Assembly (NCBI GenBank): GCA_003221515.1
Contig: QHSI01000104.1
Location: 32,568 to 96,567, forward strand
Direction: 5' to 3'
Length of the DNA: 64,000 nt
Origin: Candidatus Rokuibacteriota bacterium
GTDB lineage: Bacteria > Methylomirabilota > Methylomirabilia > Rokubacteriales > CSP1-6
Position 1 is the stretch's first letter. Each line of letters begins with the position of its first letter. The position numbers and the translations under genes are program-made. The notes under the pieces are model-generated. The model was not told the origin of the DNA. It made no database searches and saw only the letters and a program-made list of their open reading frames with translations. This document shows, one piece after another, positions 3,357-60,537 of the stretch.

Positions 3357-4132
3357 AGATTCTCGTGACCATCAAGCAGGTGCCCGACACGGCGACCCAG
3401 GTGAAGATCGCCGCCGACGGCAAGACGATCGACCCCACCGGCATCACGTGGATCGTCTCGCCGTACGACGAGTTCGCCGTCGAGGAGGCCTTGCGGATCA
3501 AGGAGAAGCGCGGCCAGGGCGAGGTCGTGGCGGTGTCGCTCGGCCCCGATCGCGTGAAGGAGGCGCTGCGCTCCTGCCTTGCGATGGGGTGCGATCGCGC
3601 GATCCATCTGAACGACCCGGCGTGGGCGGCCGCCGACACGCTGGTGACGGCGCGGGCGCTGGCCAAGGTGATCGAGCAGGAAAGCGCGCAGCTCGTGCTG
3701 TGCGGTCGGCAGGCGATCGACGACGACATGGGCGCGGTGACGGCGCAGCTCGCCGAGCTGCTCGGCTGGCCGTGCGCGTACTGGATCATGGAGGAAACGA
3801 TCGACGCCGACGCCAAGTCGGTGCGCGCGGCCCGTCAGGTCGAGGGCGGGCTCGAGGTCTTCGACCTCCCGCTGCCGGCTGTGCTGGCCGCCCAGAAGGG
3901 GCTCAACGAGCCGCGGTATCCGACGCTGAAGGGGATCATGGGCGCGAAGAAGAAGGAGATCAAAGACCTGAAGGCGTCCGACCTCGGGGGGGCGGTCGAG
4001 CCGCCTCAGCTTTCCGTGGTCGGGCTCCAGGCGCTGCCGCCCCGACCGCCCGGGCGCATCATCCAGGGTGACGTTCCCACTGCCGTGAAGGAGCTCGTGC
4101 GCAGCCTGCGTGAAGACGCCAAGGCGATCTAG
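3353..4132 (+). CDS. etfB: Electron transfer flavoprotein beta subunit
   Basis: 259 aa; 'MKILVTIKQVPDT...KIAADGKTIDP...SPYDEFAVEEALRIKE' typical EtfB N-terminus. Confidence 0.9.
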   Translation: MKILVTIKQVPDTATQVKIAADGKTIDPTGITWIVSPYDEFAVEEALRIKEKRGQGEVVAVSLGPDRVKEALRSCLAMGCDRAIHLNDPAWAAADTLVTARALAKVIEQESAQLVLCGRQAIDDDMGAVTAQLAELLGWPCAYWIMEETIDADAKSVRAARQVEGGLEVFDLPLPAVLAAQKGLNEPRYPTLKGIMGAKKKEIKDLKASDLGGAVEPPQLSVVGLQALPPRPPGRIIQGDVPTAVKELVRSLREDAKAI

Positions 4133-4144
4133 GGGGATCGGGAC

Positions 4145-5125
4145 ATGCCCGGAGCATTCTGGTGCATCGTTGAAGACGATCGAAACGGCTCGCCGAAGAA
4201 AGTCATGGCCGAGGTCATCGGCGAAGCCGCGCGCCTGGCGCCGGGCCGCGTCGAAGCCGTGTGGCTCACCGACAAGGCGAGCGAGGCCGGGCTGAAGCAG
4301 CTCGGCGAGTGGGGCGCCGCGCGGGTGCTGCTGCTCGAGAACGCGGCGTTCGCTCCGTACCGGAGCGAGGTGTGGGTGGCCTCGGCCGCCGAGCTCGCCG
4401 GCAAGGAAAGTCCGCAGGCGATCCTCGCGCCGGTCACCAGCCGCCAGCGGGAGTTCGTGGCCAGGCTGGCCGCGCGGCTCGGCGTTGGGCTCGCCGCCGA
4501 CTCCGTCGGCTTCGCGCTCGAGGGCGACAAGCTCGTCGCGACCCGTCCGGTGTATGCCGGCAAGCTCCTCTCGAAGGTGACGTGGGCGAAGGCGCCGTGG
4601 GTCGCGACGCTGCGGCCCAACGTGTTCCGTCCCGCCGCGTCGCAGCCGGGCAAGACCGCGTCGGTCGAGCGCCCGACGGTGACCGCGGCCGGCGCGCTGA
4701 TGAAGTTCGTCGAGCGACGCGAAGAGGTCTCCACCGGGTTGCCGGAGCTGACCGAGGCCGAGACGGTCATCTCGGGTGGGCGCGGGATGAAGGGGCCCGA
4801 GAACTACGTGATCCTCGAGGACCTGGGCCGCGTCATCGGCGCCGCGGTGGGCGCCTCGCGCGCGGCGGTCGACGCTGGCTGGCGGCCGCACCGGTTCCAG
4901 ATCGGCCAGACCGGACGGACCATCTCGCCCAAGCTCTACCTGGGGTTCGGCGTCTCGGGCGCGATCCAGCACCTGGCCGGCATGCGGACCTCCAAGGTCA
5001 TCGTCGCGATCAACAAGGACCCGGAGGCGCCGATCTTCAAGATCGCCGACTACGGGATCGTCGCGGATCTGTTCGAGGTCGTCCCGGAGCTCACGAAGGA
5101 ATTCAAGAAGCTCCTGGAGAAGTAG
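4145..5125 (+). CDS. etfA: Electron transfer flavoprotein alpha subunit
   Basis: 326 aa; C-terminal FAD-binding region '[13 protein letters not shown]...[13 protein letters not shown]...[29 protein letters not shown]'. Confidence 0.9.
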
Positions 5126-11808: not shown

Positions 11809-12551
11809 AGGTCACCGTCCTTCGACTGGCGCTGCTGGCGGCGCTCCTGGCGGCGTGGGAGCTGGCCGGCCGCGCGGCCAACCCGCTGCTCGCCGTCCCG
11901 CCCTCGGCGGTCTTGCCGGCGCTACGCGATCTCCTGCTGCTTCGCTCGTACCCTCGGTTGCCGGCGAGCCTCTGCCTGACCGTGCGCGAGATCGGCGTGG
12001 CGTACGCGCTGGCGGTCGCGGCCGGCCTGGGCTGCGGCTTTGCGCTCGGGATGAACCGGCTGCTCGGCCGCGCCTGGGGGCCGATGATCGCGGCGCTCTA
12101 CGCGGTGCCCGCGGTGGTCTGGTACCCGTCGCTCATGCTCTTCTTCGGCCTCGACGCGGCGTCGAAAATCGCCTTCGGCTTCCTGCTCGGATTCTTCCCG
12201 ATCACGCTCGCGGTGCTCGCCGGCGTGCGCCAGGTGAACCCGCAGCTGGTCCTCGTCGCGCGGGCGTACGGCGCGGGCGTGGTGACGGTGTTCTTCCGCG
12301 TCATGCTGCCTTCGATGCTCTTCACGCTCGTCGGTGGGCTCCGGACCGGGCTCGCGCTGAGCGTGATCGGGGTCGTCGTCGGCGAGATCCTCGGCGCGAA
12401 GGACGGGATGGGCGCCCTCATCAACCACGCCTACGGCCTGCTGCGAACGGGAGACTACGTCGCGCTCGTGCTCGTCACGCTGGCCATCGTTGTCGGCTCC
12501 GACGTGCTGGCGAGCCTCCTCGAGCGCCGCGCAAAGGCGTGGACGGAGTGA
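11805..12551 (+). CDS. ABC transporter permease (NitT/TauT family) 1
   Basis: ~248 aa, six predicted TM helices; GTG overlapping ATPase stop. Confidence 0.8.
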   Translation: MKVTVLRLALLAALLAAWELAGRAANPLLAVPPSAVLPALRDLLLLRSYPRLPASLCLTVREIGVAYALAVAAGLGCGFALGMNRLLGRAWGPMIAALYAVPAVVWYPSLMLFFGLDAASKIAFGFLLGFFPITLAVLAGVRQVNPQLVLVARAYGAGVVTVFFRVMLPSMLFTLVGGLRTGLALSVIGVVVGEILGAKDGMGALINHAYGLLRTGDYVALVLVTLAIVVGSDVLASLLERRAKAWTE

Positions 12552-12555
12552 AACG

Positions 12556-12625
12556 GAGCCGGCTCGCGCCTACCTCAGGCCACCCTCGATCCGAGCCGGC
12601 CTCACGGGCCCCGCTACAATAATCA
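12556..12625 (+). repeat. Copy A of dispersed ~65-bp repeat core (GGAGCCGGCTCGC..CTCAGGCCACCCTCG..CCGGCCTCACGG..CCCCGCTACAA) immediately 5' of permease-2 start
   Basis: Near-identical core also at 19905-19975, 25115-25190, 55651-55720 (reverse) and, partly duplicated, inside uvrA at 58385-58485. Confidence 0.6.
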
Positions 12626-12627
12626 GG

Positions 12628-13353
12628 TTGCTCCAGCTCGCGACCGTGCTGGCCGGGCTCGCGGCTTGGGAGCTCGCCGCGAGATCTGCCTGGGTCGACC
12701 CGCTGTTCATCCCGGCGCCGAGCGCCGTCGCCCGCGCCCTGGCCGCGATCTCGGGTCCCGCGCTGGCGGGCCTCGCCGACACGCTGGCCAAGACGGCCGC
12801 CGCCTACGTGCTGTCGGTCGTGCTGGGCGTCAGCGCCGGGGTCGCCGTCGGCTCGGTCAGGCTGCTGCGAGACGTGCTCTCCCCGTATGTGATCGCGCTC
12901 TACGGGATGCCGAAGATTCTGGTGCTGCCCTGGATCGTTCTTCTGCTCGGCTACGGCACGGCGCCGGCGGTCTTCTACGGCACCCTCCACGGTCTCTTCC
13001 CGATCCTGGTCCTGGTCACGGGGGCGGTCCGCGACGTCGATCGCACCCTCGTGACGGTGGCCCGATCCCTCGGCGCCACGCCCTGGCAGCTCTATTGGAA
13101 GGTGCTGCTCCCGGCCATCGTCCCCTCGGTGCTGGCCGGGATGCGGCTGGGCATCGTGTTCTGCCTCCTGGGGGTCCTGGTCGTGGAGATGTTCGCCGGG
13201 GTTCGGGGCATGGGGTACGTGATGGGCTCGCTGGCCAACGGATTTCAGGCGCCCGAGCTCTTCGCCGCGACCGCGCTGGTGTCGGCGACGTCGATCGCGA
13301 TCGTTCTGGGCCTCGATCAACTGAACGAAAGGCTCTCGCGCTGGCGCGGCTGA
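12628..13353 (+). CDS. ABC transporter permease (NitT/TauT family) 2
   Basis: Paralogous to permease 1 ('LAAWELAARSA..' vs 'LAAWELAGRAA..'); proposed TTG start at 12628 (GTG 12646 alternative); the upstream in-frame ORF extension is repeat-element sequence. Confidence 0.75.
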   Translation: MLQLATVLAGLAAWELAARSAWVDPLFIPAPSAVARALAAISGPALAGLADTLAKTAAAYVLSVVLGVSAGVAVGSVRLLRDVLSPYVIALYGMPKILVLPWIVLLLGYGTAPAVFYGTLHGLFPILVLVTGAVRDVDRTLVTVARSLGATPWQLYWKVLLPAIVPSVLAGMRLGIVFCLLGVLVVEMFAGVRGMGYVMGSLANGFQAPELFAATALVSATSIAIVLGLDQLNERLSRWRG

Positions 13354-13460
13354 TCCGAGCCGGTACAGCGCTTCCCACCTAGACCGCCCAGTTCCTGAAC
13401 ACCCCCGGCCCGCGTCGAGCGCGCAATCTTATATATCGTGCGGTTACAACGCGGCCATTC

Positions 13461-13477
13461 CTGGAACGCCGTTTGCT
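13461..13477 (+). promoter_or_regulatory. sigma54-type (-24/-12) promoter-like motif cTGGaacgccgtTTGCt
   Basis: GG and GC dinucleotides separated by exactly the consensus spacing (TGGCAC-N5-TTGC); lies ~30 nt upstream of RBS AGGAGGG / ATG 13506 in a locally AT-richer intergenic stretch. Confidence 0.35.
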
Positions 13478-13505
13478 GTTTCTTCGGTGCAGGAGGGCAA
13501 CGTCA

Positions 13506-13709
13506 ATGAGCGCCTCGGTCGAAGCGGAAGTCGTGACGGTGTATCTCGCTCTCGATGGCGGGATTCATCACGCTCGCTGCAGCCAGCGCCTCACGCTGCA
13601 CGGGCAGCGCGGGGGCCTGGAGCTGGACTTCTATTGCCTGGCCTGCGCCGAGACGGTGACGATTCCGTTCTGCGTCCTGTCCCGCATTCCCGTCGCTGAC
13701 GGGGTGTAG
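13506..13709 (+). CDS. Small hypothetical Cys/His-containing protein (67 aa; HHxRC...CxxC...C)
   Basis: Strong RBS GGAGGG 8 nt upstream of ATG; genome-typical codon usage; no recognisable family. Confidence 0.35.
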   Translation: MSASVEAEVVTVYLALDGGIHHARCSQRLTLHGQRGGLELDFYCLACAETVTIPFCVLSRIPVADGV

Positions 13710-13713
13710 AGAG

Positions 13714-14622
13714 CTACTCGCCCCGTAGGGTGGGGTCGAGCAGGTCGCGGAGCCAGTCGCCCGTACGGCTCACGACGATCGACGTCACCATCAGCACGAT
13801 GCCCGGCGCGGTCGAGATCCACCACGCCGTGTCGAGGTACTCCCGCCCCTCGTGAACCATCCCGCCCCAGGACGGCGTCGGCGGCTGGATGCCCAGCCCC
13901 AGGAACGAAAGCGTCGCCTCCAGCACGATCGCCCGCGCCAGCTCGAGCGTCGCGATCACGACCAGTGACGAGAGCACGTTCGGCAGGATGTGGCGGCTCA
14001 CCATGCGCGTCACCGACCCGCCCAGGGCCCGGATGGCGTCCACGAACTCCCGCGAGCGGAGGACCAGCACCTGCGACCGGAGGATCCGCGCGTAGTTGAC
14101 CCATCCGGAGAGGCCGATGACCACGATCAGGGTGGGAAAGCTCGGCCCGAGCACGGCGATGATGCCGATCGCCAGCAGGATGAAGGGAAACGCGAGCTGC
14201 GCGTCGGCGATGGTCATGATCGTGCTGTCCGTCCAGCCGCCGCGAAATCCGGCGACGATGCCGAGCGTGGCCCCGATCAGGCCGCCCACCACCACCGCCG
14301 CGAAGCCCACCAGCAGCGAGACGCGCGCCCCATAGACCATGCGCGAGAGGACGTCGCGCCCGAGGTGATCCGTCCCCAGCACGTGCGCCTTGCCGTCGGC
14401 GGCGGAGAGCGTGGGCGCCGCCAGCCGTGCCCGCAGTGACTGTCGAATGGGATCGTGCGGCGCGATCGCCGGCGCCGCCAGCGCCGCCACGACCAGCAGC
14501 AGGACGAAGGCGCCGCCGGCGAGCGCGAGCACCCGCGTGCGCCGCGAGCGGCCGACGGACGTCGCCGTCGCCGCGGGCGACGCCAGCTCAGCCCGAGCGG
14601 ACGCGGGGATCGAGGACGCCAT
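13714..14622 (-). CDS. Peptide/nickel-type ABC transporter permease (OppC/DppC-like)
   Basis: 302 aa; conserved permease EAA-loop region; N-terminal extension typical of OppC. Confidence 0.85.
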   Translation of the reverse strand: MASSIPASARAELASPAATATSVGRSRRTRVLALAGGAFVLLLVVAALAAPAIAPHDPIRQSLRARLAAPTLSAADGKAHVLGTDHLGRDVLSRMVYGARVSLLVGFAAVVVGGLIGATLGIVAGFRGGWTDSTIMTIADAQLAFPFILLAIGIIAVLGPSFPTLIVVIGLSGWVNYARILRSQVLVLRSREFVDAIRALGGSVTRMVSRHILPNVLSSLVVIATLELARAIVLEATLSFLGLGIQPPTPSWGGMVHEGREYLDTAWWISTAPGIVLMVTSIVVSRTGDWLRDLLDPTLRGE

Positions 14623-15514
14623 AGAGCAGGTCGATGCAGAAGTTGATCACGATGAAGAGCACGGCCGAGAGAAACACCGTGCACTGCACCACCGGATAGT
14701 CGCGGTTGTAGATCGACTGGATGGCGAGCCGCCCGATGCCCGGCCACGCGAACACGGTCTCGGTCACGACGGCGCCGCCCAGCAGCGTGCCGAACTGCAG
14801 CCCGGTGATCGTCACGATCGGGACGGCGGCGTTCTTGAGCGTGTGCTTGGCGACCACCAACCCCTCCGACAGGCCCTTCGCGCGCGCCGTGCGCACGTAG
14901 TCGGCACGCAAGACCTCGAGCACCGACGAGCGGGTGAGCCGGGCGATCGAGGCCATAGCGAAGGCGCCGAGCGTGAGCGCGGGCAGGACGAGATGACGCC
15001 AGCCCTCGCGGCCCGAGGTCGGCAGCAGGCCCAGGTTCAGCGAGACGATCAGGATCAGGAGAATGCCGATGAAGAAGGTCGGCGCCGACTGTCCGACCAG
15101 CGCCAGCCCCATCGCCGTCTGGTCGACGGCGGAGTTGCGCCGCACCGCGGAGATCACGCCGATCGGGAGCGCGACCACGATCGCCAGCGCGAAGGCTGTG
15201 AGGCCGAGCTCGAGCGTCGCCGGCAGGTAGCCGACGACCACGCGGAACGCGGGCTGGCGGAAGTGGATCGACCGGCCGAAATCGCCGCGGAGCGCGTTGC
15301 CGAGGAAGACCGCGTACTGCACCGGCAGCGGGCGATCCAGGCCGAGCTCGGCGCGCACGCGGAAGATCTCGCTGCGCGGCGCGTCCGGCGGCAGCAGCAG
15401 CGGCACCGGATCGCCCGACAGGCGCATGACGACGAAGACCACGGTGGAGACGAGCCACAGCGCGACGGCGGCGCGGACGAGGCGGGAGGCGAGGAACGGG
15501 AGCAGACTGCGCAT
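14588..15514 (-). CDS. Peptide/nickel-type ABC transporter permease (OppB/DppB-like)
   Basis: 308 aa; 'MRSLLPFLASRLVRAAVALWLVSTVVF' N-terminal TM and binding-protein-dependent transport signature. Confidence 0.85.
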   Translation of the reverse strand: MRSLLPFLASRLVRAAVALWLVSTVVFVVMRLSGDPVPLLLPPDAPRSEIFRVRAELGLDRPLPVQYAVFLGNALRGDFGRSIHFRQPAFRVVVGYLPATLELGLTAFALAIVVALPIGVISAVRRNSAVDQTAMGLALVGQSAPTFFIGILLILIVSLNLGLLPTSGREGWRHLVLPALTLGAFAMASIARLTRSSVLEVLRADYVRTARAKGLSEGLVVAKHTLKNAAVPIVTITGLQFGTLLGGAVVTETVFAWPGIGRLAIQSIYNRDYPVVQCTVFLSAVLFIVINFCIDLLYGVLDPRVRSG

Positions 15515-15559
15515 GCGCGACGGGGCGGAGCCGGACGGCGCCGCCCCGGGAACGCGGGT

Positions 15560-17110
15560 CTACGCGCGACGGAACTTGAAGTTGAACTTCCGGATCTCGA
15601 GCTGCTGGAGCGGATCCGGCGTCCACTCGACGTACTTCTGCAGGCCGTAGTCCTCGTACGGCTGGATCACCGGGATCCAGGGCAAGTGCTCGAGGAAGAT
15701 CTTCGTCATCCTCTTGTAGGCGTCACCGCGGAACTTCTCGTCGACCGAGAAACGGGCGGCGTTGCCGAGCTCGTCGAACTCCGCATGCCGCCAGTAGTCC
15801 TGCGGCCCGCCCGGGCCCAGGAGCCGCCACATCATGCCGTCCGGATCGCGCAGCGTGGACGTCGGGTCCGACCACCACAGGCCCTTGAAGGTCTTGTCGC
15901 GGTTCTTCTGGGCACGGACCGAATACTCGAAGATCTCGACCTTGGCATTGACGCCGACGTCCCGCCACATGGCCTGGATGGCCTCGCTCATGGGCTTGTC
16001 GCCGGCCATGTAGCCCGAAGTGGTCTCGATGACGATCTCCTCGCCCTTGTAGCCGGACTTCTTGAGGCGGTCCTTCGCCTCGGCCGGCTTGAACGCGAGC
16101 GGGGGCAGCGAGGCCTCGAAGTGGTTGTCGCCCTGGGCGACCATCGAGTTCGGGACCACGCCGCGGCCGCGCCACAGCTCCTTCACGATCGCCTCGCGGT
16201 CGATGGCCAGGGACAGCGCCTGCTTCAGCAGCGGATTGTCGAGCGGGGGCCGCTGCGAGTTCACCGCGAGCACGTAGAGGCCGCCGTAGAGCGCACCGGC
16301 CACCGCGGTCGAGGCGTTGGCCTTGATCCGCTCGCCCTGATCCGGGGGCACCTGGGTGATCAGGTCGACCTCGCCCTTGAGCAGCGCGGCGACCCGGGGC
16401 GCCATCTCGGGAAGCGCCCGAACGACGAGCCGGTCGAAGTCCACGCGGCCGCCCCAGTAGCTCGGGTTCGCCTCGAGCACGATCCGATCGTCTTTCGTCC
16501 ACGACACGAAGCGCACCGGCCCGGTCCCGATCGGCTTCTGGTTGAAGGTGTCGGGGCCGACTTGTTCCACGTACTTCTTGGGGATCATCTGTCCGCCGTA
16601 GAAGCCCAAGCGCGCCGGCAGCAGCGGATCGGGCTTCTTCGTGTGAACGACCACGGTGCTCGGGTCCGGCGCCTCGACGCGATCGACCGTCGTCAGGACG
16701 GTGCTCACGCGGTTGCCCTTCAACGTCTTGTCGAGCGAGCGGTCGATGCTGAACTTGACGTCGGCCGACGAGAACGACTCGCCGTCGTGCCACTTGACGC
16801 CCGAGCGGAGCTTGAACACCCACGTCGTCTGGCCCTGCAGCTTCCACTCCGTCGCGAGACCGGGGGCGAGCTTGCCGTCGGGCCGGCGACTGGTGAGGTT
16901 GTCGAAGATGTTGAACGAGATGCGGATGTCGTTCGACGACGTGCTCTGGTGCGGATCGAACGCCGCGACGTCACCGCCCTGGGCGACGACCAGCTCCTTC
17001 TTCTGCGTCGTTTGCGCGGCCGCCGGGCGCGGAAGACCGGCCGGGAGCGCGGCCATCGCGCCCGCCGCGGCGGCGGTCTTGAGCACGTCACGTCGGGTGA
17101 TCTCTGCCAT
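15560..17110 (-). CDS. ABC transporter substrate-binding protein, family 5 (peptide/nickel), Tat signal
   Basis: Start taken at MAEITRRDVLKTAAAAGAMAALP (twin-arginine motif) rather than upstream ORF-track Met; ~516 aa. Confidence 0.85.
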   Translation of the reverse strand: MAEITRRDVLKTAAAAGAMAALPAGLPRPAAAQTTQKKELVVAQGGDVAAFDPHQSTSSNDIRISFNIFDNLTSRRPDGKLAPGLATEWKLQGQTTWVFKLRSGVKWHDGESFSSADVKFSIDRSLDKTLKGNRVSTVLTTVDRVEAPDPSTVVVHTKKPDPLLPARLGFYGGQMIPKKYVEQVGPDTFNQKPIGTGPVRFVSWTKDDRIVLEANPSYWGGRVDFDRLVVRALPEMAPRVAALLKGEVDLITQVPPDQGERIKANASTAVAGALYGGLYVLAVNSQRPPLDNPLLKQALSLAIDREAIVKELWRGRGVVPNSMVAQGDNHFEASLPPLAFKPAEAKDRLKKSGYKGEEIVIETTSGYMAGDKPMSEAIQAMWRDVGVNAKVEIFEYSVRAQKNRDKTFKGLWWSDPTSTLRDPDGMMWRLLGPGGPQDYWRHAEFDELGNAARFSVDEKFRGDAYKRMTKIFLEHLPWIPVIQPYEDYGLQKYVEWTPDPLQQLEIRKFNFKFRRA

Positions 17111-17185
17111 ACACGCCTCCTGGAAAATCGATCGGTGGGGGTCTATATGGGGGCGCTTCGCGGCTCCTGTCAAGGCCCCGGCGGT

Positions 17186-18511
17186 CTAGCTCGGCTCCGG
17201 CTGCACGAGGTACGAGCGGCGCACGCGGGCCTGCACGTCGACGACGACGTCGCGCTCCAGCGTGATCTCGACCTCGTGCTGCTCGGCGGACCAGCGGCTC
17301 ACCGTCGCGAGCCAGCCGAGGCTCCGCCCGGCCTGCGGCGCGATGCGGCGCCCGCGATAGACCAGCGTCCGTCGCTCGGGCGCGTTGAGCTCCTCGCGCT
17401 CCTCGGTGTTGGGTCCGCAGAGCCGCAGCACCTCCTGGGACGTCGTCGACCCGGGCGTGACCCGGGCGAGGGTGTCGCGCGAGAGGACCACGCCGGTCTG
17501 CCGCACGGCGCCCGGGCCGAGCCGGACGCGGCCGGCGAGCCTCGCGCCGAAGCGCCGCACCAGCGCCATGACCAGCGGGGTCGCCAGGTTGCCGAGCGCG
17601 AAGAAGACGATCGGGATCAGGACGGGCATCCACGCGCGCCAGCCGTGGAAGTACGCGAACCGTACCGTGAGCACCTGCGGGCTGAGGCCCTCGGACGGGT
17701 CGATGAAGAGCGAGACCTCCTCCGTGGTGTCGAGCGTCTCGCTGAGCCGGCGGCGGGCCGAGCTGGGAAACACCTCGTGGATTTTCAGGTGCTCGGAGTC
17801 GCGGAGATTCACGATCAGCTGCGACGGATCGGCGGCCAGACGGATGATCCGATCCCGCTTCTCGAAGTAGAGGGGGAACAGCGCGCGGGGTCGGACGTCG
17901 TTGAAGGTGAGCGACAGCGCGTGCGTCGGGCCCCAGAACGCGTCCTCGATCCAGGTCGCTTGCCGCCGGCGGAGGAGGTTCGGCTGCTCGATGCGGAGAT
18001 CCATCAGGAACGTGCGATTGGCGAGCATGGGGGTCCACGGGATCCGCACGTAGGTCGCCGGCGACGTCAGGCCGAGCGGCCCGCCCTCCTGGATGAACGT
18101 CACGAACGGGGCGCCACCCGCGGTGGGCTGCGGGGGGACGTCGTCGCCGGCGCGGTAGAGACTCTCGGCGAAGAGCGGCAGCCGCCCCTCGGCGATCGGC
18201 ACGAAGCCGCGCGCCTTGATGGAGGCGACCAGCGCCGCGTCAGGTGCCGCGCCCGTCAGCGCGCCGCCGACCGGGCCGGGCCAGAGGAGGTAGAGGTCCT
18301 GCTCGATGGCGGCCCCGCTCTTCGCCGGCGGAATCACGAGACTCCACAGGACGTCGACCGTGACCGCGTGCAGCTCCGGCGTCACGTTCGCGCGGACGAA
18401 GAGCGGGCCGATCGTGAACTCGGGGCTCGGCCGCGACGCGAGGAAGATCTGGCCCTCCGCGACGGTGGGCGCCGCGGCCAGGACCAACACCGCGAGCCAG
18501 GCGCGGCGCAT
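17186..18511 (-). CDS. Hypothetical membrane-anchored protein (signal peptide, ~300-aa extracytoplasmic domain, one TM, ~120-aa C-terminal domain); paralog of 18524-19867
   Basis: 441 aa; cleavable signal 'MRRAWLAVLVLAAAPTVAEGQIF'; TM 'WMPVLIPIVFFALGNLATPLVMAL'; no known family recognised. Confidence 0.6.
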   Translation of the reverse strand: MRRAWLAVLVLAAAPTVAEGQIFLASRPSPEFTIGPLFVRANVTPELHAVTVDVLWSLVIPPAKSGAAIEQDLYLLWPGPVGGALTGAAPDAALVASIKARGFVPIAEGRLPLFAESLYRAGDDVPPQPTAGGAPFVTFIQEGGPLGLTSPATYVRIPWTPMLANRTFLMDLRIEQPNLLRRRQATWIEDAFWGPTHALSLTFNDVRPRALFPLYFEKRDRIIRLAADPSQLIVNLRDSEHLKIHEVFPSSARRRLSETLDTTEEVSLFIDPSEGLSPQVLTVRFAYFHGWRAWMPVLIPIVFFALGNLATPLVMALVRRFGARLAGRVRLGPGAVRQTGVVLSRDTLARVTPGSTTSQEVLRLCGPNTEEREELNAPERRTLVYRGRRIAPQAGRSLGWLATVSRWSAEQHEVEITLERDVVVDVQARVRRSYLVQPEPS

Positions 18512-18523
18512 CCGCGGCGCGCC

Positions 18524-19867
18524 TCAGGCCGGGTTGGGCTGGGTCAGGCGGGTGCGGTGCACCTGGGCCTGAACGTCGCGCACGCGATCGCCGTCGAGCT
18601 CGATCTCCAGCTCGTGGTGCTCGACGTCCCAGCTCTGCACCGTCGCCAGCCATCCGAACTGCCGGCGCCGGTGGGGGACCGTGCGGCGCCCGCGATAGAC
18701 CAGCGTTCGCCGACCGGGCGCGTTGAGCCGCTCGCGCTCCTCCGGATCGGGTCCACAGATCTTCAAGATCTCGTCGTACGTCGTCTCGCCCGGGGCGATC
18801 CGGGTCAGCGTCTCGCGCGGGACGATCGTGCCGACATGCTGCTCGGCGCCGGCGCCGCTGCGCGGCCCGAAGCGGATGCGTCCCTGGAGCCGCGCGCCGA
18901 GCCGCCTGGCGAGGGTGGCGACGAGGGGGCCAGCGACGTTGCCGAGGACGAAGAACAACGTCGCGAAGAGCACCGGCGCCCACGACTGCCAGCCGGAGAA
19001 GTAGCCGTACTGCACGGTCAACACTTGAGGGCGGAGACCCTCCGACGGATCGATGTAGGTCGAGACGATCTCGGTCCCCCGGCGCGACTCGCTCGTGCGC
19101 CGTTGGCTCGAGCCCGGAAAGACTTCGTGGATCTTGAGGTGGTCGGAGTCCGCGAACGTGATGGTGAGTGTCGATGGATCGTCGGAGAGGTGGACCACCC
19201 GATCGCGATACGCGAGGTACATGGGGAACGTGGCGCGCGTGCGCACGTCGTTGAAGCTCAGCGTGACCAGGTGACGCTCGCCCCAGAGGAAGTTCTCCAG
19301 CCAGGTGGCCTGCTTCGGCCGCCTGAGCCCGGTGAGACGCATCCTGAGGTCGATCAAGAACGAGCGGTCGACGAGCCGCGGCGTCCACGGGATCCGGATC
19401 CAGGTGGCCGGCGTGGGCAGGCCGAGCGGCCCCGCCTCTCGAGTGTAGGTGACGAACGGCGCGCCGCCAGGGAGCGGCTCCGGCTTCGCGCGCTGAGGGC
19501 CGGAATACACGGCGCGGGCGGACAGCGGCAGGCGGCCCTCGCGGGCGACCTGGAACCCACGTTCCTCCACGGTCCGGCGCAGTGCCGGGTCCGGTTCTCC
19601 CGCGACCATCTCGCCGTCCACCGCGCCCGGCCACAGGAGATAGAGATCTTGCTCGAGCGCAGCGGCGCCGACGTTCGGCGGCACCACGAGACTCCAGAGC
19701 AGGCTGACTTCGACCGGACCACCGGCCGGCACCACGTTCGCGCGGATCGACAGCGGACCGATCGTGAACTCCGGCTTCGGCTTGGACGCGAGAAAGATCT
19801 GAGCGTGCGCCGGCGCCGCGACCAGCGCCAGCAGCACGGCGACGAGCAAGACGAGCAAACGGCGGGT
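18524..19867 (-). CDS. Hypothetical membrane-anchored protein, tandem paralog of 17186-18511; start uncertain (no in-frame ATG before the signal peptide; CTG 19867 or TTG 19849 candidates)
   Basis: Highly similar along its length to the neighbour ('QIFLASKPKPEFTIGPLSIRANV'); the 5' end of the ORF reads through a 21-bp tandem repeat and repeat core B. Confidence 0.55.
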   Translation of the reverse strand, partial: TRRLLVLLVAVLLALVAAPAHAQIFLASKPKPEFTIGPLSIRANVVPAGGPVEVSLLWSLVVPPNVGAAALEQDLYLLWPGAVDGEMVAGEPDPALRRTVEERGFQVAREGRLPLSARAVYSGPQRAKPEPLPGGAPFVTYTREAGPLGLPTPATWIRIPWTPRLVDRSFLIDLRMRLTGLRRPKQATWLENFLWGERHLVTLSFNDVRTRATFPMYLAYRDRVVHLSDDPSTLTITFADSDHLKIHEVFPGSSQRRTSESRRGTEIVSTYIDPSEGLRPQVLTVQYGYFSGWQSWAPVLFATLFFVLGNVAGPLVATLARRLGARLQGRIRFGPRSGAGAEQHVGTIVPRETLTRIAPGETTYDEILKICGPDPEERERLNAPGRRTLVYRGRRTVPHRRRQFGWLATVQSWDVEHHELEIELDGDRVRDVQAQVHRTRLTQPNPA

Positions 19868-19902
19868 TGTCCGCAGACCGGCGCGGGTTGTCCGCAGACC
19901 GG
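19862..19902 (+). repeat. 2 x ~21-bp tandem repeat (GCGGGTTGTCCGCAGACCGG) abutting repeat core B
   Basis: Direct tandem duplication seen in sequence. Confidence 0.7.
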
Positions 19903-19904
19903 TG

Positions 19905-19975
19905 CCCCGAGCATCTATCTCAGGCCACCCTCGGTTCAAACCGGCCTCACGGTCCCCGTTACAACATTCCCGCGA
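19905..19975 (+). repeat. Copy B of dispersed ~65-bp repeat core
   Basis: CCCCGAGCATCTATCTCAGGCCACCCTCGGTTCAAACCGGCCTCACGGTCCCCGTTACAACA; between the SBP stop (19982) and the paralog gene 5' end. Confidence 0.6.
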
Positions 19976-19981
19976 CAATAA

Positions 19982-20959
19982 CTACAGCTTCACCGGGGTG
20001 AAGTCACGCGTGTAGTGCTCGTCGAGCGCGAGCTTTTTCTTGATGAGCCCGTGCTCGATGAGCGCGTCCTGCATCGCGGCGAGCGCGTCCACGTTGATGC
20101 GCCCGTCGACGGGCAGCAGCGGGCCGGAGATCTTGTGGGCGCCGAGCACCGCCTCGGCGCTCCAGCCGAGCTTCTTGCCGACCACCTCGGCGATCTCGCC
20201 CGGCTTGTCGCGCATGATCTTGATCGCGCGGAACAGCGCGCGCTGGCTCTTCTGGATCGTGTCGGCCTGCTTCTTGATGGCGTCCTCGGACGCGTACTGG
20301 ATCTGGCTGATCCACTTGGGCGTCACGGCGTCCAGGCGCAAGAGCACTTTGGACTTACCCTGGAGCTCGGTGACCGCGCCGCCGTCGCCCCAGACGTAGG
20401 CGGCGATCTCCTTGCGAGCCATGGCGGCGAGCTGAGCGTCGAGGCCGCCGAGCCCCACGACCTGCACGTCCTTGTCGGGATCCCACCCTTCCTTCTTCGC
20501 GAGCATGCGGGCGAAGACCCACGTCGTGGCGCCGGCCCGGGTGACGCCGATCGCCTTGCCCTTGAGGTCGGCGATCTTCTGCACGTCGGCCGCGACGTTG
20601 AGCGTGAAGTGGTTCCCCTCGGTGTGGGTGGCGATCATCTTCATCGGCGAGCCGGCCTCGCGGAAGACGAGGATGTCGGTGCTGCCGGTGATCCCAACGA
20701 GGCACTCGCCCGCCATCACCGCCTTGAGCAGATCGGGACCGCCGCGGAACGGCACGAACTCGGCGGCGAGCCCCTCGCTCTTGAAGAAGCCGCGCTCGAG
20801 CGCGACGATCACCGGCCCGGCCATCGAATAGTCGCCCAGCACCGCGGTGCCGATCTTGACCGACGTCTGCGCACGGGCGGCGCGCGCGAGTGCGGGCACG
20901 GTGCCCGCCGCGGCGGCGGCGGCCAGGAATCGACGCCGTGAGATCACGAGCATGAACAC
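19982..20959 (-). CDS. ABC transporter substrate-binding protein, NMT1/SsuA/TauA-like (NitT/TauT family), Tat signal
   Basis: 325 aa; 'SRRRFLAAAAAAGTVPALARA' twin-arginine signal; likely the missing SBP partner of the 11020-13353 transporter. Confidence 0.75.
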   Translation of the reverse strand: MFMLVISRRRFLAAAAAAGTVPALARAARAQTSVKIGTAVLGDYSMAGPVIVALERGFFKSEGLAAEFVPFRGGPDLLKAVMAGECLVGITGSTDILVFREAGSPMKMIATHTEGNHFTLNVAADVQKIADLKGKAIGVTRAGATTWVFARMLAKKEGWDPDKDVQVVGLGGLDAQLAAMARKEIAAYVWGDGGAVTELQGKSKVLLRLDAVTPKWISQIQYASEDAIKKQADTIQKSQRALFRAIKIMRDKPGEIAEVVGKKLGWSAEAVLGAHKISGPLLPVDGRINVDALAAMQDALIEHGLIKKKLALDEHYTRDFTPVKL

Positions 20960-21020
20960 GCCTCCTTACGAGACCGGGCGGCCTTGACTTTCCTCTGACA
21001 CCCGGTGATCGTACAACTTC

Positions 21021-21827
21021 GTGAGCGTCGTCGACAACGTTAGCGGCGCCGCGCCGGTCACCTACGAGGCGAAGGACGGCGTCGGCTGGATCACGCTGAA
21101 CCGTCCTGAGGTTCTCAACGCGCTCTCCACCGAGCTGGCCGCCGCGCTCGCCGACTGCGCCGCGACGGCGGCCGCCGACGCCTCCGCCAGCCAGGTCGTC
21201 GTCCGTGGCGCCGGACGCGCGTTCTGCTCGGGCATGGACCGCACGGCGATGTCCGCCGGGTCGATCGGTGACGCGTTCTACCGCCACTGGAACCGGGCGC
21301 TCGACGGCCTGGAGGACATGTCGAAGATCACGCTCGCGGTGCTGCACGGCTACTCGATCGGCGGCGGCCTGCAGCTGGCGCTGGCATGCGATCTCCGCCT
21401 CGCCACCGACGACGCCGTCCTCGGTCTGGGCGCGACGCGCCACGGCCTCGTCCCCGACGGCGCGGTGCTGCGGCTGGCGCGGGTGGTCGGCGTCGGCCGC
21501 GCCAAGGAGCTCGCGCTGCTCAACGACACCCTGAGCCCCGCCGAGGCGCGGGCCATCGGTCTCGTCAACTGGGTGTGCGCGCCGGCCGACCTCGACGCGA
21601 CGCTGGCCGCCGTCGTCGCCAAGGCCCGCGCCGCCTCGCCGACCGCCACCGGCCACACCAAGCGCCTCCTGCACGAGTCGTTTCACCGCGACCCGCGCAC
21701 GCTGCTGGAGGACGTGCTGGCGGCGCAGGACGAGTGCATGTCGTCGTGGGAGATCGACGAGGCCAACCGGGCGTGGCAGGAGAAGCGGGAGGCGCGCTTC
21801 TACCCGCCGCCGCCGGCCCGTCCTTAG
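21021..21827 (+). CDS. Enoyl-CoA hydratase/isomerase (crotonase) family protein
   Basis: 268 aa; 'GAGRAFCSGMD' and 'LHGYSIGGGLQLALACD' crotonase oxyanion-hole motifs; GTG start. Confidence 0.85.
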   Translation: MSVVDNVSGAAPVTYEAKDGVGWITLNRPEVLNALSTELAAALADCAATAAADASASQVVVRGAGRAFCSGMDRTAMSAGSIGDAFYRHWNRALDGLEDMSKITLAVLHGYSIGGGLQLALACDLRLATDDAVLGLGATRHGLVPDGAVLRLARVVGVGRAKELALLNDTLSPAEARAIGLVNWVCAPADLDATLAAVVAKARAASPTATGHTKRLLHESFHRDPRTLLEDVLAAQDECMSSWEIDEANRAWQEKREARFYPPPPARP

Positions 21828-21829
21828 AA

Positions 21830-22577
21830 ATGGCCGACGACGTCATCCTCGAGACGGAGGCGCTGACCAAGGAGTTTCGCGGGTTCGTGGCGGTGAAGGA
21901 CGTGAAGCTCCGTGTCCGCCGCGGCACCATCCACGCGCTGATCGGTCCCAACGGCGCCGGCAAGACGACCTGCTTCAATCTGCTGACGCACTTCCTCACG
22001 CCGACGCGCGGCCGAATCCGGTTCAACGGGCGCGACATCACCGGATCGCGGCCGGCCGACATCGCGCGGCTCGGGCTCGTCCGCTCGTTCCAGATCTCGG
22101 CGGTGTTCCCCCATCTCTCGGTGCTCGAGAACGTGCGCATCGCGCTCCAGCGCGAGCGCGGCGGCTCGTTCGATTTCTGGCGCTCGGCGCGCGCGCTCGA
22201 CCGCCTGAACGGCCGCGCGCTCGAGCTGATCGAGGCGGTCGGCCTCGCCGCGTTCGCGGCGACGCCGGCGGTCGAGCTGCCGTACGGGCGCAAGCGCGCG
22301 CTCGAGATCGCCACCACGCTCGCGCTCGCGCCGCAGATGATGCTGCTCGACGAGCCGACCGCCGGCATGGCCCACGACGACGTCGACCGCATCTCGGCGC
22401 TGATCAAGCGGGTGGCGGCGAACCGCACCGTCCTGATGGTCGAGCACAATCTGCGAGTGGTCGAGAACCTCTCGGACACCATCACGGTGCTGGCGCGCGG
22501 CGAGATTCTCGCCGAGGGCGACTACCGGAGCGTGTCGCGCAACGCGGACGTGATCCAGGCCTACATGGGGTCGGGCC

Positions 22578-22585
<8 letters not shown>
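21830..22585 (+). CDS. Branched-chain amino acid ABC transporter ATP-binding protein (LivG-type)
   Basis: 'GPNGAGKTT', 'LPYGRKRALEIATTLALAPQMMLLDEPTAGM'. Confidence 0.85.
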
Positions 22586-23282
<697 letters not shown>

Positions 23283-23340
23283 TGCCGCCGTACGCGGCCG
23301 CCCTCGAGCGCAGCCGGCGATCGCCAAAGGAGCAGAGCGC

Positions 23341-24555
23341 ATGACCATCGCTCGCATCGCCGCCGCATTCATCGTCGTCTTGAGCCTGGCCGTCGGCCCG
23401 GCGCACGCCCAGATCTCCGATGGCGTCGTCAAGATCGGCGTCCTCAACGATCAGTCGAGCCTCTACGCCGACCTGGCCGGCCAGGGCTCGGTGGTCGCGG
23501 CACGCATGGCCGTCGAGGATTTCGGCGCCGCCGCCAAAGGGCTGAAAGTCGAGATCGTGTTCGCCGACCATCAGAACAAGGCCGATGTCGGCTCGCAGAT
23601 CGCGCGCCAGTGGTACGACGCCGAGAAGGTCGATCTCATCCTCGACGTACCGAACTCGGGCGTGGCGCTGGCCGTCAATCAGATCACCCGCGACAAGGGC
23701 AAGGCGTTCATCGTTTCCTCCGCGGCGTCCTCGGATCTCACCGGCAAGGCGTGCTCGCCCAACACCGTCCACTGGACGTACGACACGTGGGCGCTCGCCA
23801 ACGGCACCGGTAACGCGGTCGTGAAGACCGGCGGCGACACGTGGTTCTTCATCACCGCCGACTACGCGTTCGGCCACGCCCTCGAGCGCGACGTCGAGGC
23901 GGTGGTGCTGAAGAACGGCGGCAAGGTGCTGGGCAAGGTGCGCCACCCGCTCAACACGCAGGACTTCTCGTCGTTCCTCCTCCAGGCCCAGGCTTCGAAG
24001 GCCAAGGTCATCGGGCTGGCCAACGCCGGCGGCGACACGACCAACGCGATCAAGCAGGGCGCCGAGTTCGGCATCGCGAAGGGCGGGCAGATCTTCGCGG
24101 GCCTGCTGGTGTTCCTCACCGACGTGCACGCGCTCGGCCTCGAGAAGGCCCAGGGGCTCACGTTCACCGAGACCTTCTACTGGGACATGAACGAGAAGAC
24201 GCGCGCGTTCGCCAAGCGGTTCGCCGAGCGCAACCGGCAGATCCATCCGACGATGATCCACGCGGGCGCCTACGCGGGCACGCTGCACTACCTGAAGGCC
24301 GTCGAGGCGCTCAAGAGCGACGACGGCGCCAAGGTCATCGCCAAGATGAAAGAGATGCCGACGGACGACCCGCTCTTCGGCAAGGGGACGATTCGTGTCG
24401 ACGGCCGCAAGATTCATCCGGCGTATCTCGTCGAGGTCAAGAAGCCCTCCGAGTCCAAGTACCCGTGGGACTACTACAAGATCCGCGCAACTATCCCCGC
24501 TGAGCAGGCGTTCCGGCCTCTGGATCAGGGGGGCTGTGAGCTCGTGAAGAAGTAG
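23341..24555 (+). CDS. Leu/Ile/Val-binding-protein-family ABC substrate-binding protein (type I periplasmic binding fold)
   Basis: 404 aa; signal 'MTIARIAAAFIVVLSLAVGPAHAQ'; 'VKIGVLNDQSSLYADLAG' LivK/LivJ-like; RBS AAAGGAG. Confidence 0.85.
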   Translation: MTIARIAAAFIVVLSLAVGPAHAQISDGVVKIGVLNDQSSLYADLAGQGSVVAARMAVEDFGAAAKGLKVEIVFADHQNKADVGSQIARQWYDAEKVDLILDVPNSGVALAVNQITRDKGKAFIVSSAASSDLTGKACSPNTVHWTYDTWALANGTGNAVVKTGGDTWFFITADYAFGHALERDVEAVVLKNGGKVLGKVRHPLNTQDFSSFLLQAQASKAKVIGLANAGGDTTNAIKQGAEFGIAKGGQIFAGLLVFLTDVHALGLEKAQGLTFTETFYWDMNEKTRAFAKRFAERNRQIHPTMIHAGAYAGTLHYLKAVEALKSDDGAKVIAKMKEMPTDDPLFGKGTIRVDGRKIHPAYLVEVKKPSESKYPWDYYKIRATIPAEQAFRPLDQGGCELVKK

Positions 24556-24565
24556 GCGCGTTGCG

Positions 24566-24725
24566 GCGGGCCCGGGGGCGGGGGTGCGAGAGGGGTGCGG
24601 CGACCACGAGGCACGCGAGCGCATTGCCCGGTGCGGCTGGGCTCCATCTGGGTGCGGCTCGCACGACGCTCGCTTGGAGGGAACGGGTCGGCGCACCCCT
24701 CTCCCACCCCCACCCCCGGGCCCTC
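24566..24725. mobile_element. MITE-like element family 1, copy 1 (~160 bp, ~29-bp terminal inverted repeats CCCGGGGGCGGGGGTGCGAGAGGGGTGCG / CGCACCCCTCTCCCACCCCCACCCCCGGG)
   Basis: Starts 11 nt after livK-like stop; internal ~90 bp conserved with copies at 45134-45295 and 45426-45594. Confidence 0.5.
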
Positions 24726-24920
24726 ACACAGCGACGCTTCGTCTACGTATTGCCGCACCTGATCCAACCCCGGCTCCGGCTGCATCGGCGCGTGAAATCA
24801 CTGCGCACCGTGCACGAGTCGTCGGACCTACGCGGCATTCGCATCCTTCGCAACGCACGTTTGGGCGCGTCGACGCCATGCCGCTCCCCGCACCGGGGAT
24901 GAACGGGCGGATCGGAGCCA

Positions 24921-25114
24921 CGGCGCGTCGAGCGCGCGGGTTGTGCGGGCGGGTCGGCGCCGGCGCGCGATCGCCGCGTGGGTTGGCCGGGCGGGTCGGC
25001 GCCGGCGCGCAATCGCCGCGTGGGATGGCCGGGCGGGTCGGCGCCGGCGCGCAATCGCCGCGTGGGATGGCCGGGCGGGTCGGCGCCGGCTGGCAATCGG
25101 CGCGCGGGTTGTAC
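24921..25114 (+). repeat. Minisatellite: ~4.6 tandem copies of a 42-bp unit (GGGCGGGTCGGCGCCGGCGCGCAATCGCCGCGTGGGATGGCC) fused to repeat core C
   Basis: Units at 24947, 24989, 25031, 25073 (42 nt each, few substitutions), partial unit before; contiguous, no unique spacers. Confidence 0.8.
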
Positions 25115-25190
25115 GGGCGTGTCGGAGCCGGCTCGCATCTACAGCAGGCCACCCTCGGCATGAGCCGTTCTCAAGCTCCTATACAATGAC
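25115..25190 (+). repeat. Copy C of dispersed ~65-bp repeat core, ending at/overlapping the livH start codon
   Basis: GGGCGTGTCGGAGCCGGCTCGCATCTACAGCAGGCCACCCTCGGCATGAGCCGTTCTCAAGCTCCTATACAATG. Confidence 0.6.
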
Positions 25191-26052
25191 GCAGGCGTTG
25201 TTCGGGCAGCTGCTGATCGGGCTGATCAACGGCTCGTTCTACGCGATGCTGAGCCTCGGGCTGTCGGTCATCTTCGGGTTGCTCAACATCATCAACTTCA
25301 CGCACGGCGCCCAGTACATGATGGGCGCGTTCGTCGCCTACTTCCTGTTGAACTGGGCCGGGCTCGGCTACTGGTGGGCGCTGCTCATCGCGCCGGTCGT
25401 GGTAGGGATCACCGGGGTCGTGCTCGAGCGCACGACGCTCAAGCGGCTCTACCAGCTCGATCACCTGTACGGCCTGCTGCTCACGTTCGGCTTCGCGCTG
25501 ATCATCCAGGGCCTGTTCCGGCACGAGTACGGCTCATCGGGCTTGCCCTACGCGATGCCCGCGCAGCTCGGCGGAGGCCGCAACCTCGGGTTCATGTTCC
25601 TGCCCAACTACCGGGCGTGGGTCATCGTATTCTCGCTCGCGGTGTGCCTGGCGACCTGGTACGTGATCGAGCGCACGCGCCTGGGCGCGTACCTGCGCGC
25701 CGCGACCGAGAATCCGTCGCTGGTGCAGGCGTTCGGGATCAACGTGCCCCGGATGATCACGCTGACCTACGGGTTCGGCGTCGGCCTCGCGGCCCTGGCC
25801 GGCGTGCTGGCGGCGCCGATCTACCAGGTGAACCCGCTCATGGGCGCCGATCTGATCATCGTCGTCTTCGCGGTGGTCGTCATCGGTGGGCTGGGCTCGA
25901 TCTTGGGCTCGATCGTCACGGGCTTCGCGCTCGGGGTGGTCGAGGGCTTCACCAAGGTCTTCTATCCGGAGGCGTCCAACACGGTGATCTTCGTCATCAT
26001 GGCGCTCGTGCTGCTGGTGCGGCCCGCCGGCCTCTTCGGGCGAGCCACGTGA
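25186..26052 (+). CDS. Branched-chain amino acid ABC transporter permease (LivH-type)
   Basis: 289 aa; 'MTQALFGQLLIGLINGSFYAMLSLGLSVIFG' canonical LivH N-terminus; no SD, start codon embedded in repeat core C. Confidence 0.85.
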   Translation: MTQALFGQLLIGLINGSFYAMLSLGLSVIFGLLNIINFTHGAQYMMGAFVAYFLLNWAGLGYWWALLIAPVVVGITGVVLERTTLKRLYQLDHLYGLLLTFGFALIIQGLFRHEYGSSGLPYAMPAQLGGGRNLGFMFLPNYRAWVIVFSLAVCLATWYVIERTRLGAYLRAATENPSLVQAFGINVPRMITLTYGFGVGLAALAGVLAAPIYQVNPLMGADLIIVVFAVVVIGGLGSILGSIVTGFALGVVEGFTKVFYPEASNTVIFVIMALVLLVRPAGLFGRAT

Positions 26053-55644: not shown

Positions 55645-55650
55645 TTTCGC

Positions 55651-55720
55651 CGCCTCCTGTTGTAGCGGGGTCCGTGAGGCCGGCTTGCACCGAGGGTGGC
55701 CTGAGATAGATGCGACCCGG
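55651..55720 (-). repeat. Copy D of dispersed ~65-bp repeat core (reverse orientation), immediately 5' of the LmbE-like gene
   Basis: Reverse complement reads CCGGGTCGCATCTATCTCAGGCCACCCTCGGTGCAAGCCGGCCTCACGGACCCCGCTACAACAGGAGG. Confidence 0.6.
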
Positions 55721-55924
55721 CTCCGCTCGCCCGGTCAACCCTTTGATGCGACCCGGCTCCGCTTGCCCGGTCAACCGTTCGATGCGATTCCGGCTCCGCT
55801 TGCCTGGTCAACCCTTTGGTGCGACCCGGCTCCGCTCGCCCGGTCAACCGTTCGATGCGATTCCGGCTCCGCACGCCCGCTCATCCCTTCGATGCTGGTC
55901 GAACCCGCTTAGATGCGTGGGTCC
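55711..55924 (-). repeat. Minisatellite: ~5.8 tandem copies of a 36/37-bp unit (TGCGACCCGGCTCCGCTCGCCCGGTCAACCCTTTGA) attached to repeat core D
   Basis: Units start 55711, 55747, 55783, 55820, 55856, partial 55893; same position relative to the core as the 42-bp array at copy C. Confidence 0.8.
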
Positions 55925-55958
55925 AGGATACTGATTCTGGGGGTGGGGTGGGAACGGC

Positions 55959-55964: not shown

Positions 55965-55970
55965 CGCGCG

Positions 55971-57665: not shown

Positions 57666-60537
<2,872 letters not shown>

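Follow-up and report, generated by a model that had tools for sequence, protein, structure and literature searches.

A 66-nt interspersed repeat at gene junctions in Rokubacteria, an undescribed family of a MIRU-like kind

Five copies of a repeat in a 64-kb window

The window (the whole stretch of DNA analysed, 64,000 nt of a Candidatus Rokuibacteriota contig, 69% G+C) carries five copies of a short repeat, next to genes for ABC transporter permeases, a binding protein and an LmbE/PIG-L protein, and within uvrA. A sequence-only reading had described four copies, all as intergenic. Sequence and alignment place all four where that reading put them, and their ~70-nt alignment contains long invariant blocks; copy 3, diverged in its 3' half, is still recovered by a profile of the family (E = 2e-13). 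A fifth copy lies inside uvrA at 58380-58444 (+), so the window copies are not all intergenic. No tRNA or tmRNA was found in the window. The repeat copies and the features attached to them are listed below.

12548..12622, + strand: small ORF bridging copy 1, 24 codons plus stop (read from the sequence)
12554..12619, + strand: copy 1, one 66-nt unit, CGGAGCC...GCTACAA (profile search, 66.8 bits); its neighbours are two NitT/TauT-type ABC permease genes, both with Pfam BPD_transp_1
19862..19902, + strand: 21-nt x 2 'head' tandem repeat adjoining copy 2 (TRF)
about 19899..19964, + strand: copy 2, 5' part diverged (profile search, 56.2 bits)
19965..19981, + strand: partial 'tail' repeat 3' of copy 2, TCCCGCGACAATAAC, like CCCCGYTACAAYA (from the sequence)
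24584..25189, + strand: ORF bridging copy 3, 201 codons (ORF list; no Pfam match)
24933..25137, + strand: 42-nt x 4.9 'head' tandem repeat 5' of copy 3 (TRF)
25123..25186, + strand: copy 3, 64 nt, 3' half diverged (profile, 49.6 bits, E = 2e-13)
55660..55725, - strand: copy 4, one 66-nt unit (profile, 71.9 bits)
55709..55895, - strand: 36-nt x 5.1 'head' tandem repeat at copy 4, whose unit takes in the core's first 16 nt (TRF)
58378..58494, + strand: whole UvrA insertion, residues 242-280, made of copy 5 and a 33-nt partial duplication
58380..58444, + strand: copy 5, within uvrA and read in the gene's frame (nhmmer match 58378-58445, 40.5 bits, E = 1.5e-10)

The unit is 66 nt long, CGGAGCC…CCCCGCTACAA (CGGAGCC...CTACAA), a length set by head-to-tail arrays with a 66-nt period at six collected loci (L020, L024, L033, L084, L093 and L029). 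In a stack of 124 anchored copies the consensus reads CGGAGCCGGGTCGCGCCTnTCTCAGGCCACCCTCGGTCCAAGCCGGCCTCACGGaCCCCGCTACAA, with a weaker signal, CCGGGCGTG(T), on its 5' side; next to the window copies there is a weaker extension at the 5' end, CGGGCGTGTC. The 24-nt motif at the 3' end, CCGGCCTCACGGNCCCCGYTACAA, occurs three times in the window vs. 0 times in 100 shuffles. Parts of the unit are repeated too, as 5' 'heads' of 21-54 nt and 3' 'tails' of 15 nt (CCCCGCTACAAYAR), with tandem repeats of 21, 42 and 36 nt next to copies 2, 3 and 4, respectively (TRF), and 15-nt tails at other loci. In L095 (1-236) and L097 the tandem period is a composite of 102 nt, consisting of a full unit and a partial head (AAAGCCGGCTCGCGCCCAGGGAAGACCGGGCGTGT); higher-order units can thus amplify as a block.

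Copies 1 and 3 each lie within a small reading frame that joins two genes. The ORF bridging copy 1 starts at a GTG overlapping the stop of the upstream permease gene (GTGA, 12548-12551), and its TAA (12620-12622) overlaps an ATA that occupies the downstream start position, at 12619; the first canonical downstream start codon is the TTG at 12628. An orthologous locus (L111) has the same architecture with a 23-codon ORF (ATG...CAGTGA), and the copy 1 bridge has no Pfam match. At copy 3, the last A of the repeat is the A of the ATG (25186) of a livH-type permease gene (Pfam BPD_transp_2; ortholog in L082). The binding-protein gene stops at 24555, and the 201-codon ORF occupies the 630-nt gap that follows, head repeats included; the TGA of this ORF (25187-25189) overlaps the livH-type ATG as ATGA.

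The remaining copies are placed differently. Copy 4 is followed by AGGAGG (55658-55653) and then by the GTG start (55644) of the LmbE/PIG-L gene, a layout that is identical in four orthologs (L012, L034, L059 and L106). Copy 2, which had been reported as running opposite to a neighbouring gene, is indeed antisense, and to both flanking minus-strand genes, one for an NMT1-like binding protein (19982-20959) and the other at 18524-19867; a minus-strand ORF with a TTG start (18524-19978) is open through it. The UvrA insertion comprises 39 residues vs. 3 in solved structures (alignment to 9gxk_A), begins at the first base of the profile match, and is common to L047, L053 and L059; an in-frame uvrA copy is present in four or more species.

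Two other features of the window lie near these copies. A 50-nt tandem repeat (x2.2, 96% identical, ATCATTGATAGACTCGCCTCGTCGGAGGCACCGTCTCGGCTCGTACGACC) at 54112-54220, at the junction of a minus-strand tRNA_edit (YbaK-like) gene and an AhpC/TSA gene, is unrelated to the 66-nt family. Between the LmbE-type gene and uvrA, ~1.9 kb (55735-57648) contain no ORF with gene-like codon-position GC, and the long ORFs there, 55971-57665 (+) and 56223-57710 (-), have no Pfam match.

Distribution, turnover and divergence of the family

When one genome per species was scanned for the exact pattern CAGGCCACCCTCG-N7-CCGNNCTCA, at least 109 stretches matched. Among the matches listed, nearly all were in MAGs of Candidatus Rokubacteria/Rokuibacteriota/Methylomirabilota, about 20 species; two (L067 and L094) were chance pattern matches within actinobacterial coding DNA. 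An nhmmer profile recovered 160 copies in 847 kb of collected stretches from about 20 genomes. The copies are therefore not confined to one locus, and the proposal that they belong to an undescribed dispersed family is borne out; in the literature searched, no earlier account of it turned up for Rokubacteria or Methylomirabilota. At least 27 loci among the matches listed came from one MAG, which together with the five copies in 64 kb suggests, as a rough estimate, hundreds of copies per Rokubacterial genome. Copy numbers are lower bounds, and all sequences are from MAGs.

MAGs labelled Candidatus Binatia (DASPZZ: L030, L031, L042, L047, L048 etc.) also carry many copies, as does L021, labelled Acidobacteriota, and a few carriers are labelled 'uncultured bacterium'. 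The genes flanking the repeat in these MAGs are orthologous to Rokubacterial ones. The taxonomic labels or the binning of the Binatia- and Acidobacteriota-labelled carriers are probably wrong, and the repeat may serve as a lineage marker.

Orthologous sites occur both with and without the repeat. Of the permease pairs orthologous to that around copy 1, L110 (ATGA overlap) and L113 (GTGA overlap) are empty and L111, like the window, is filled; the junction in L112 reads TGA-GC-GTG. A kinase/response regulator junction is empty in L050 (GTGA overlap), filled in L074 and reduced to a 20-nt remnant in L104, and a further site is empty in L030 (TGATG) and filled in L032, with 66 nt between TGA and TG. 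With respect to a possible target duplication, NTGA-like 4-mers flank several filled sites, and the L030/L032 comparison shows none and looks like a clean 66-nt insertion. Upstream of a gene encoding MIPHSRPT..., L003 has a direct copy (~4090-4160), L108 an inverted copy with a tail remnant, and L093 two inverted copies in tandem; the finding of direct, inverted and double copies at a single orthologous site points to repeated independent events there. These sequence comparisons suggest that the repeat is probably mobile.

Identity is 0.83 between orthologous copies, 0.74 between non-orthologous copies and 0.70 at third codon positions of the flanking genes. In three pairs of close relatives (L109/L037, L055/L054 and L014/L036) the flanking genes are 95-100% identical and the unit has 9-10 differences, which fall at positions that vary family-wide; the number of 45-nt head repeats differs within the same pairs. 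For two genomes with flanks of 98-100% identity, identity in the element falls to about 85%, and head-repeat numbers differ as well. Such faster divergence of the element than of its flanks suggests gene conversion and VNTR-type change, or alternatively assembly error in repeats. It contradicts strong site-by-site purifying selection, a candidate that we rejected, although assembly errors could contribute to the divergence between near-identical genomes. Many nucleotides are near-invariant across about 20 species, part of this being imposed by the search pattern. No genome-specific subfamilies or within-genome concerted evolution were seen (identity 0.786 within and 0.770 between genomes), nor was there a codon-position pattern of conservation, information being equal at all three positions in every frame.

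Orientation, phase and reading frame

Coding strand and frame of the flanking genes were called crudely, by codon-position GC. The proposed co-orientation with, and contact with, gene starts holds family-wide: 88 copies are co-oriented with the downstream gene and 13 opposite, and the same-strand copies fall almost entirely into one phase (81 in phase 0, 7 in phase 1, 0 in phase 2). Orthologous copies are not independent; when they are collapsed to 84 distinct loci, 45 are co-oriented vs. 6, with phase 0 in 42 of the 45, and de-duplicated counts retain every main effect. The upstream neighbour is co-oriented in 77 cases and divergent in 16, with none called for 41 copies. Base composition downstream has a 3-nt periodicity in register with the ATG at the element's end, and in about half of the copies the start codon takes its A from the end of TACAA. 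Native N-termini begin at this ATG in purD (MKVLLVGGGG), SDR, pheT, response regulator, LmbE-type and livH-type genes, and the repeat is kept upstream of orthologous purD, mutL, LmbE and livH genes in several species. In most ATG-type copies there is no Shine-Dalgarno sequence between the element and the start.

A stop codon overlaps the start at the same place. The triplet 3' of TACAA (n = 147) is TGA in 55 copies, TAA in 15, TAG in 4 and TGG in 4, giving an overlapping stop of the ATGA/ATAA type in 74 of 147. The base after ATG is A in 55 of 59 copies (background 0.21), and all 12 copies with ATA keep the stop; because of these two counts we regard the start-overlapping stop as kept at least as well as the ATG itself, and TAA plus TAG (19) outnumber TGG (4) in the same triplet.

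The frame ending at this stop, here termed frame A, is also the one that tends to stay open back to the upstream gene. Among all copies with an upstream co-oriented gene (n = 64), the gap is wholly open in frame A in 45, in B in 30 and in C in 26; among those with an overlapping stop (n = 41) the counts are 35, 23 and 19 (Fisher p = 0.007 and 0.0004), and for gaps >250 nt (n = 25) they are 11, 2 and 2. Of 50 bridging cases, 29 have a frame-A start codon that coincides with the upstream stop in an NTGA overlap, and the 4-mer at the upstream stop is ATGA in 42% vs. a background of 17.6% in all gene-like ORFs. Gap lengths are 1 mod 3 in 42 of 69 cases (p = 8e-6; 29 of 47 after de-duplication), and 46 of 55 tandem repeats near elements have a period divisible by 3 (p = 2e-14).

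In the commonest layout, then, the upstream gene ends in NTGA, whose NTG starts a short frame-A bridge ORF; the bridge crosses the spacer, the head repeats and the unit, and stops at T(G/A)(A/G) after TACAA, overlapping the downstream start. The sequence-only reading had noted neither this reading-frame logic, 3n sub-repeats included, nor the copy in uvrA. Other layouts that preserve reading frames are a C-terminal extension, in which the frame of the upstream gene continues across the unit and ends at the overlapping TGA (L090, L022, L083, L062, L041 and L052); an N-terminal extension from a 5' GTG in frame with the downstream gene (L108, L003 and L093); the in-frame loop insertion in uvrA; and placement of the unit just ahead of the gene's own Shine-Dalgarno sequence, as in copy 4 and its LmbE orthologs. 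Copies that have lost the terminal ATG more often carry an ATG at -15, the CTCATGG variant (15 of 88 vs. 2 of 59), which annotators take as the start (e.g., MGPATIIRLLQL).

In about 15 of the 81 phase-0 copies the codon at the position of the orthologs' Met1 is ATA, ATT or ATC, as in pheT of L063 (ATA), an SDR gene of L009 (ATT), a response regulator gene of L074 (ATA) and purD of L044 (ATC); the window has ATA at the start position as well (12619-12621). Going upstream in frame from this codon, a stop is reached before any ATG, GTG or TTG in L063, L009 and L074. Downstream, the next 90 nt of L063 and L009 lack such a codon as well, and L074 has its first, a GTG, at +48. The frame-A stop that overlaps the start (ATAA/ATAG) is retained in every ATA case. 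These starts may reflect re-initiation at near-cognate codons, or sequence errors in the MAGs.

Interpretation and rival explanations

The repeat is an undescribed family, specific to Rokubacteria, of an already known, MIRU-like kind, and is neither a promoter nor a structured RNA. The account that we favour, and judge reasonably probable from sequence comparison, is that a MIRU-like interspersed repeat spread to stop/start junctions and survived where reading frames were preserved. Copies could arise by transposition or recombination. Ribosomes leaving the upstream gene would translate the bridge and re-initiate at the downstream start, such that translational coupling would survive the insertion, and selection for coupling would in turn shape the orientation, the phase lock, the 1 mod 3 gaps and the 3n sub-repeats.

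Coupling is not the explanation for every copy, because 29 of 134 lack a frame-A start codon, 16 have divergent upstream neighbours and 41 have none called. Copy 4 and its orthologs also count against coupling, since the gene there has a Shine-Dalgarno sequence of its own. Near-invariance across species with neither subfamilies nor a codon pattern points to a sequence-level constraint outside the coupling model; perhaps this is recognition by a mobilising enzyme, which is a guess.

MIRUs provide the closest likeness. As described in PMC12548453 and PMC3184786 (citing Supply et al. 1997), they are units of 40-100 bp located between the genes of operons, alone or as direct tandem arrays whose copy number varies, and in the same orientation as the flanking genes, with an ORF that overlaps the upstream stop and the downstream start by 4 nt (ATGA). 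MIRUs have empty vs. filled sites with tetranucleotide repeats at the junctions, and are interpreted as mobile DNA whose insertion at start codons barely affects expression; PMC3184786 gives about 40-50 copies per mycobacterial genome, and the Delihas review mentions imperfect terminal and internal inverted repeats. The Rokubacterial unit, at 66 nt, falls within the same size range, is likewise scattered over many intergenic sites, as lone units or as direct tandem arrays that vary in copy number, and co-oriented with flanking genes; its bridge ORFs have stop/start overlaps (window copies 1 and 3), though not in every copy, and its orthologous sites are also empty or filled. It differs in its host (Rokubacteria/Methylomirabilota rather than Mycobacterium), so that we compare the architecture and claim no place in the mycobacterial sequence family, and in being probably far more numerous (5 in 64 kb). 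Unlike MIRUs, it has a modular head/core/tail make-up with sub-repeats 15-54 nt long, its bridge ORFs reach about 200 codons, about 15 of 81 phase-0 copies have ATA, ATT or ATC at the start position, and it has no conserved inverted repeats.

A bolder version, which we consider possible but unlikely, is a site-specific mobile element that recognises NTGA stop/start overlaps by undescribed enzymology, its bridge ORF feeding re-initiation at near-cognate AUA, AUU and AUC codons in AUAA-type overlaps. If this were true, even essential genes such as pheT (L063) would lack a canonical start codon, bridge ORFs made by the repeat would mediate the expression of hundreds of Rokubacterial genes, and the number of tandem repeats could tune expression.

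Another explanation makes the repeat a functional expression cassette common to many genes, either a promoter (possibly of leaderless mRNAs) or a translation-enhancing 5' UTR. Its co-orientation and direct contact with start codons fit such a role, as do its retention 5' of orthologous purD, mutL, LmbE and livH genes in several species, the many near-invariant positions over about 20 species in the absence of subfamilies, the want of a Shine-Dalgarno sequence before the start in most ATG-type copies, and the in-frame ATG at -15 that compensates for loss of the terminal ATG. The -10-like motif TACAA(T/C)A, from which promoter delivery had been proposed, does not survive inspection, however: the last A of TACAA, with the following TG, is the native start codon, at which native N-termini begin, and TACAAT, overlapped by the ATG, is unusable as the -10 box of that gene. 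A consensus scan of 12000-26000 and 54000-59000 found no sigma-70-type promoter at any window copy, and a consensus scan for terminators was likewise empty at these copies. A leaderless promoter is improbable as well, since a transcript beginning at the ATG would put GNCCCC at -10 and usable starts also occur at -15, +3 and +12, unlike one fixed site.

The 5'-UTR variant of the cassette fares no better on structure. RNAalifold on 138 copies gave -2.4 kcal/mol for the plus strand and -0.9 for the minus strand, with no conserved structure, and in four candidate helices, among them the weak AGGCC/GGCCT stem put forward earlier, pairing is no commoner than in column-shuffled alignments and does not covary. 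Rfam had no match in the window at the gathering score, and a permissive search (E <= 10, 55600-55900) returned nothing credible. A structured RNA, ribozyme or riboswitch was discarded on the combination of no Rfam match, no consensus structure and no covariation, and a tRNA-like origin on the lack of any tRNA or tmRNA in the window. Copies are also found in frame within uvrA, antisense (copy 2; 13 of 101), as remnants, or not at all at orthologous sites, close relatives differ more in the element than in its flanks, and the overlapping stop is kept better than the ATG (TAA plus TAG 19 vs. TGG 4), which a promoter or UTR model does not predict. We therefore hold the cassette to be decidedly improbable.

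The suggestion of a selfish REP/MITE-like repeat came closest to the truth in its selfish part; its structural part, a palindromic or inverted-repeat-ended non-autonomous transposon of REP/BIME or MITE type moved by a RAYT or DDE transposase, is very doubtful. REP/BIMEs and MITEs are defined by stem-loops or terminal inverted repeats and have no reading-frame logic (PMC3184786). The Rokubacterial repeat resembles them in being short, abundant, mostly intergenic and array-forming, and in its presence/absence and orientation polymorphism, but it has a reading-frame logic, and neither conserved terminal inverted repeats nor a conserved palindrome or stem-loop was found. A 9-nt inverted repeat exists only in copy 1, where it is internal; it is absent in 3 of the 4 window copies tested and pairs no better than shuffles across the family, and the RNAalifold energy is near zero on both strands. 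The reverse complement of the unit begins TTGTAGCGGGG and contains GTAG, which we take to be the REP head motif and which counts for this reading. Against it, the strong orientation and start-codon phase lock is not a REP or MITE trait, and units in the arrays follow one another head-to-tail rather than in alternating orientation. The elements known as RPEs (Rickettsia palindromic elements; Ogata et al. 2000, cited in PMC3184786) are 105-146 bp long, palindromic and not phase-locked to start codons; the Rokubacterial repeat is like them in occurring both between genes and in frame within a coding gene, to which it adds a peptide segment (UvrA residues 242-280), and unlike them in having no conserved palindrome and in lying mostly at stop/start junctions.

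A selected peptide module, a linker or tail shuffled among proteins, would fit the 3n lengths of the unit and its sub-repeats, the in-frame reading within UvrA, and the C-terminal extensions (L090 and L022) and annotated N-termini such as MGPATIIRLLQL, but is hardly credible given that conservation is at the nucleotide level and equal at the three codon positions in every frame, that copies are read in different frames and strands (copy 2), that Pfam has no match in any frame of the unit, and that the conserved N-termini of the flanking proteins exclude most copies.

If the MIRU-like account of a repeat bridging stop/start junctions is right, it bears on more than this family. MIRUs are the only other example we found of a repeat that lands on start codons with its own coupled ORF. 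That an unrelated, uncultured soil phylum has an independent family, probably with far more copies, suggests that the strategy is general, and the many copies of this family would offer enough independent sites to measure the reading-frame constraints of translational coupling. To our knowledge, MIRU biology has barely been studied beyond strain typing. Genes with ATA, ATT or ATC at Met1 would be test cases for near-cognate re-initiation. The family probably accounts for some of the long 'intergenic' tracts in Rokubacteria genomes, and of practical use would be the unit as a marker for Rokubacterial contigs and the head repeats as VNTR-like loci for strain resolution.

The repeat also misleads gene callers, producing fused ORFs and N-termini inside the repeat such as MGPATIIRLLQL. 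Among public gene calls distorted by it, P0016 (419 aa) is a fused ORF of two permeases, and N-termini reading MVPATI..., MGPATI... and MDPATI... (among P0001, P0004, P0012 and P0025) start at an ATG within the repeat.
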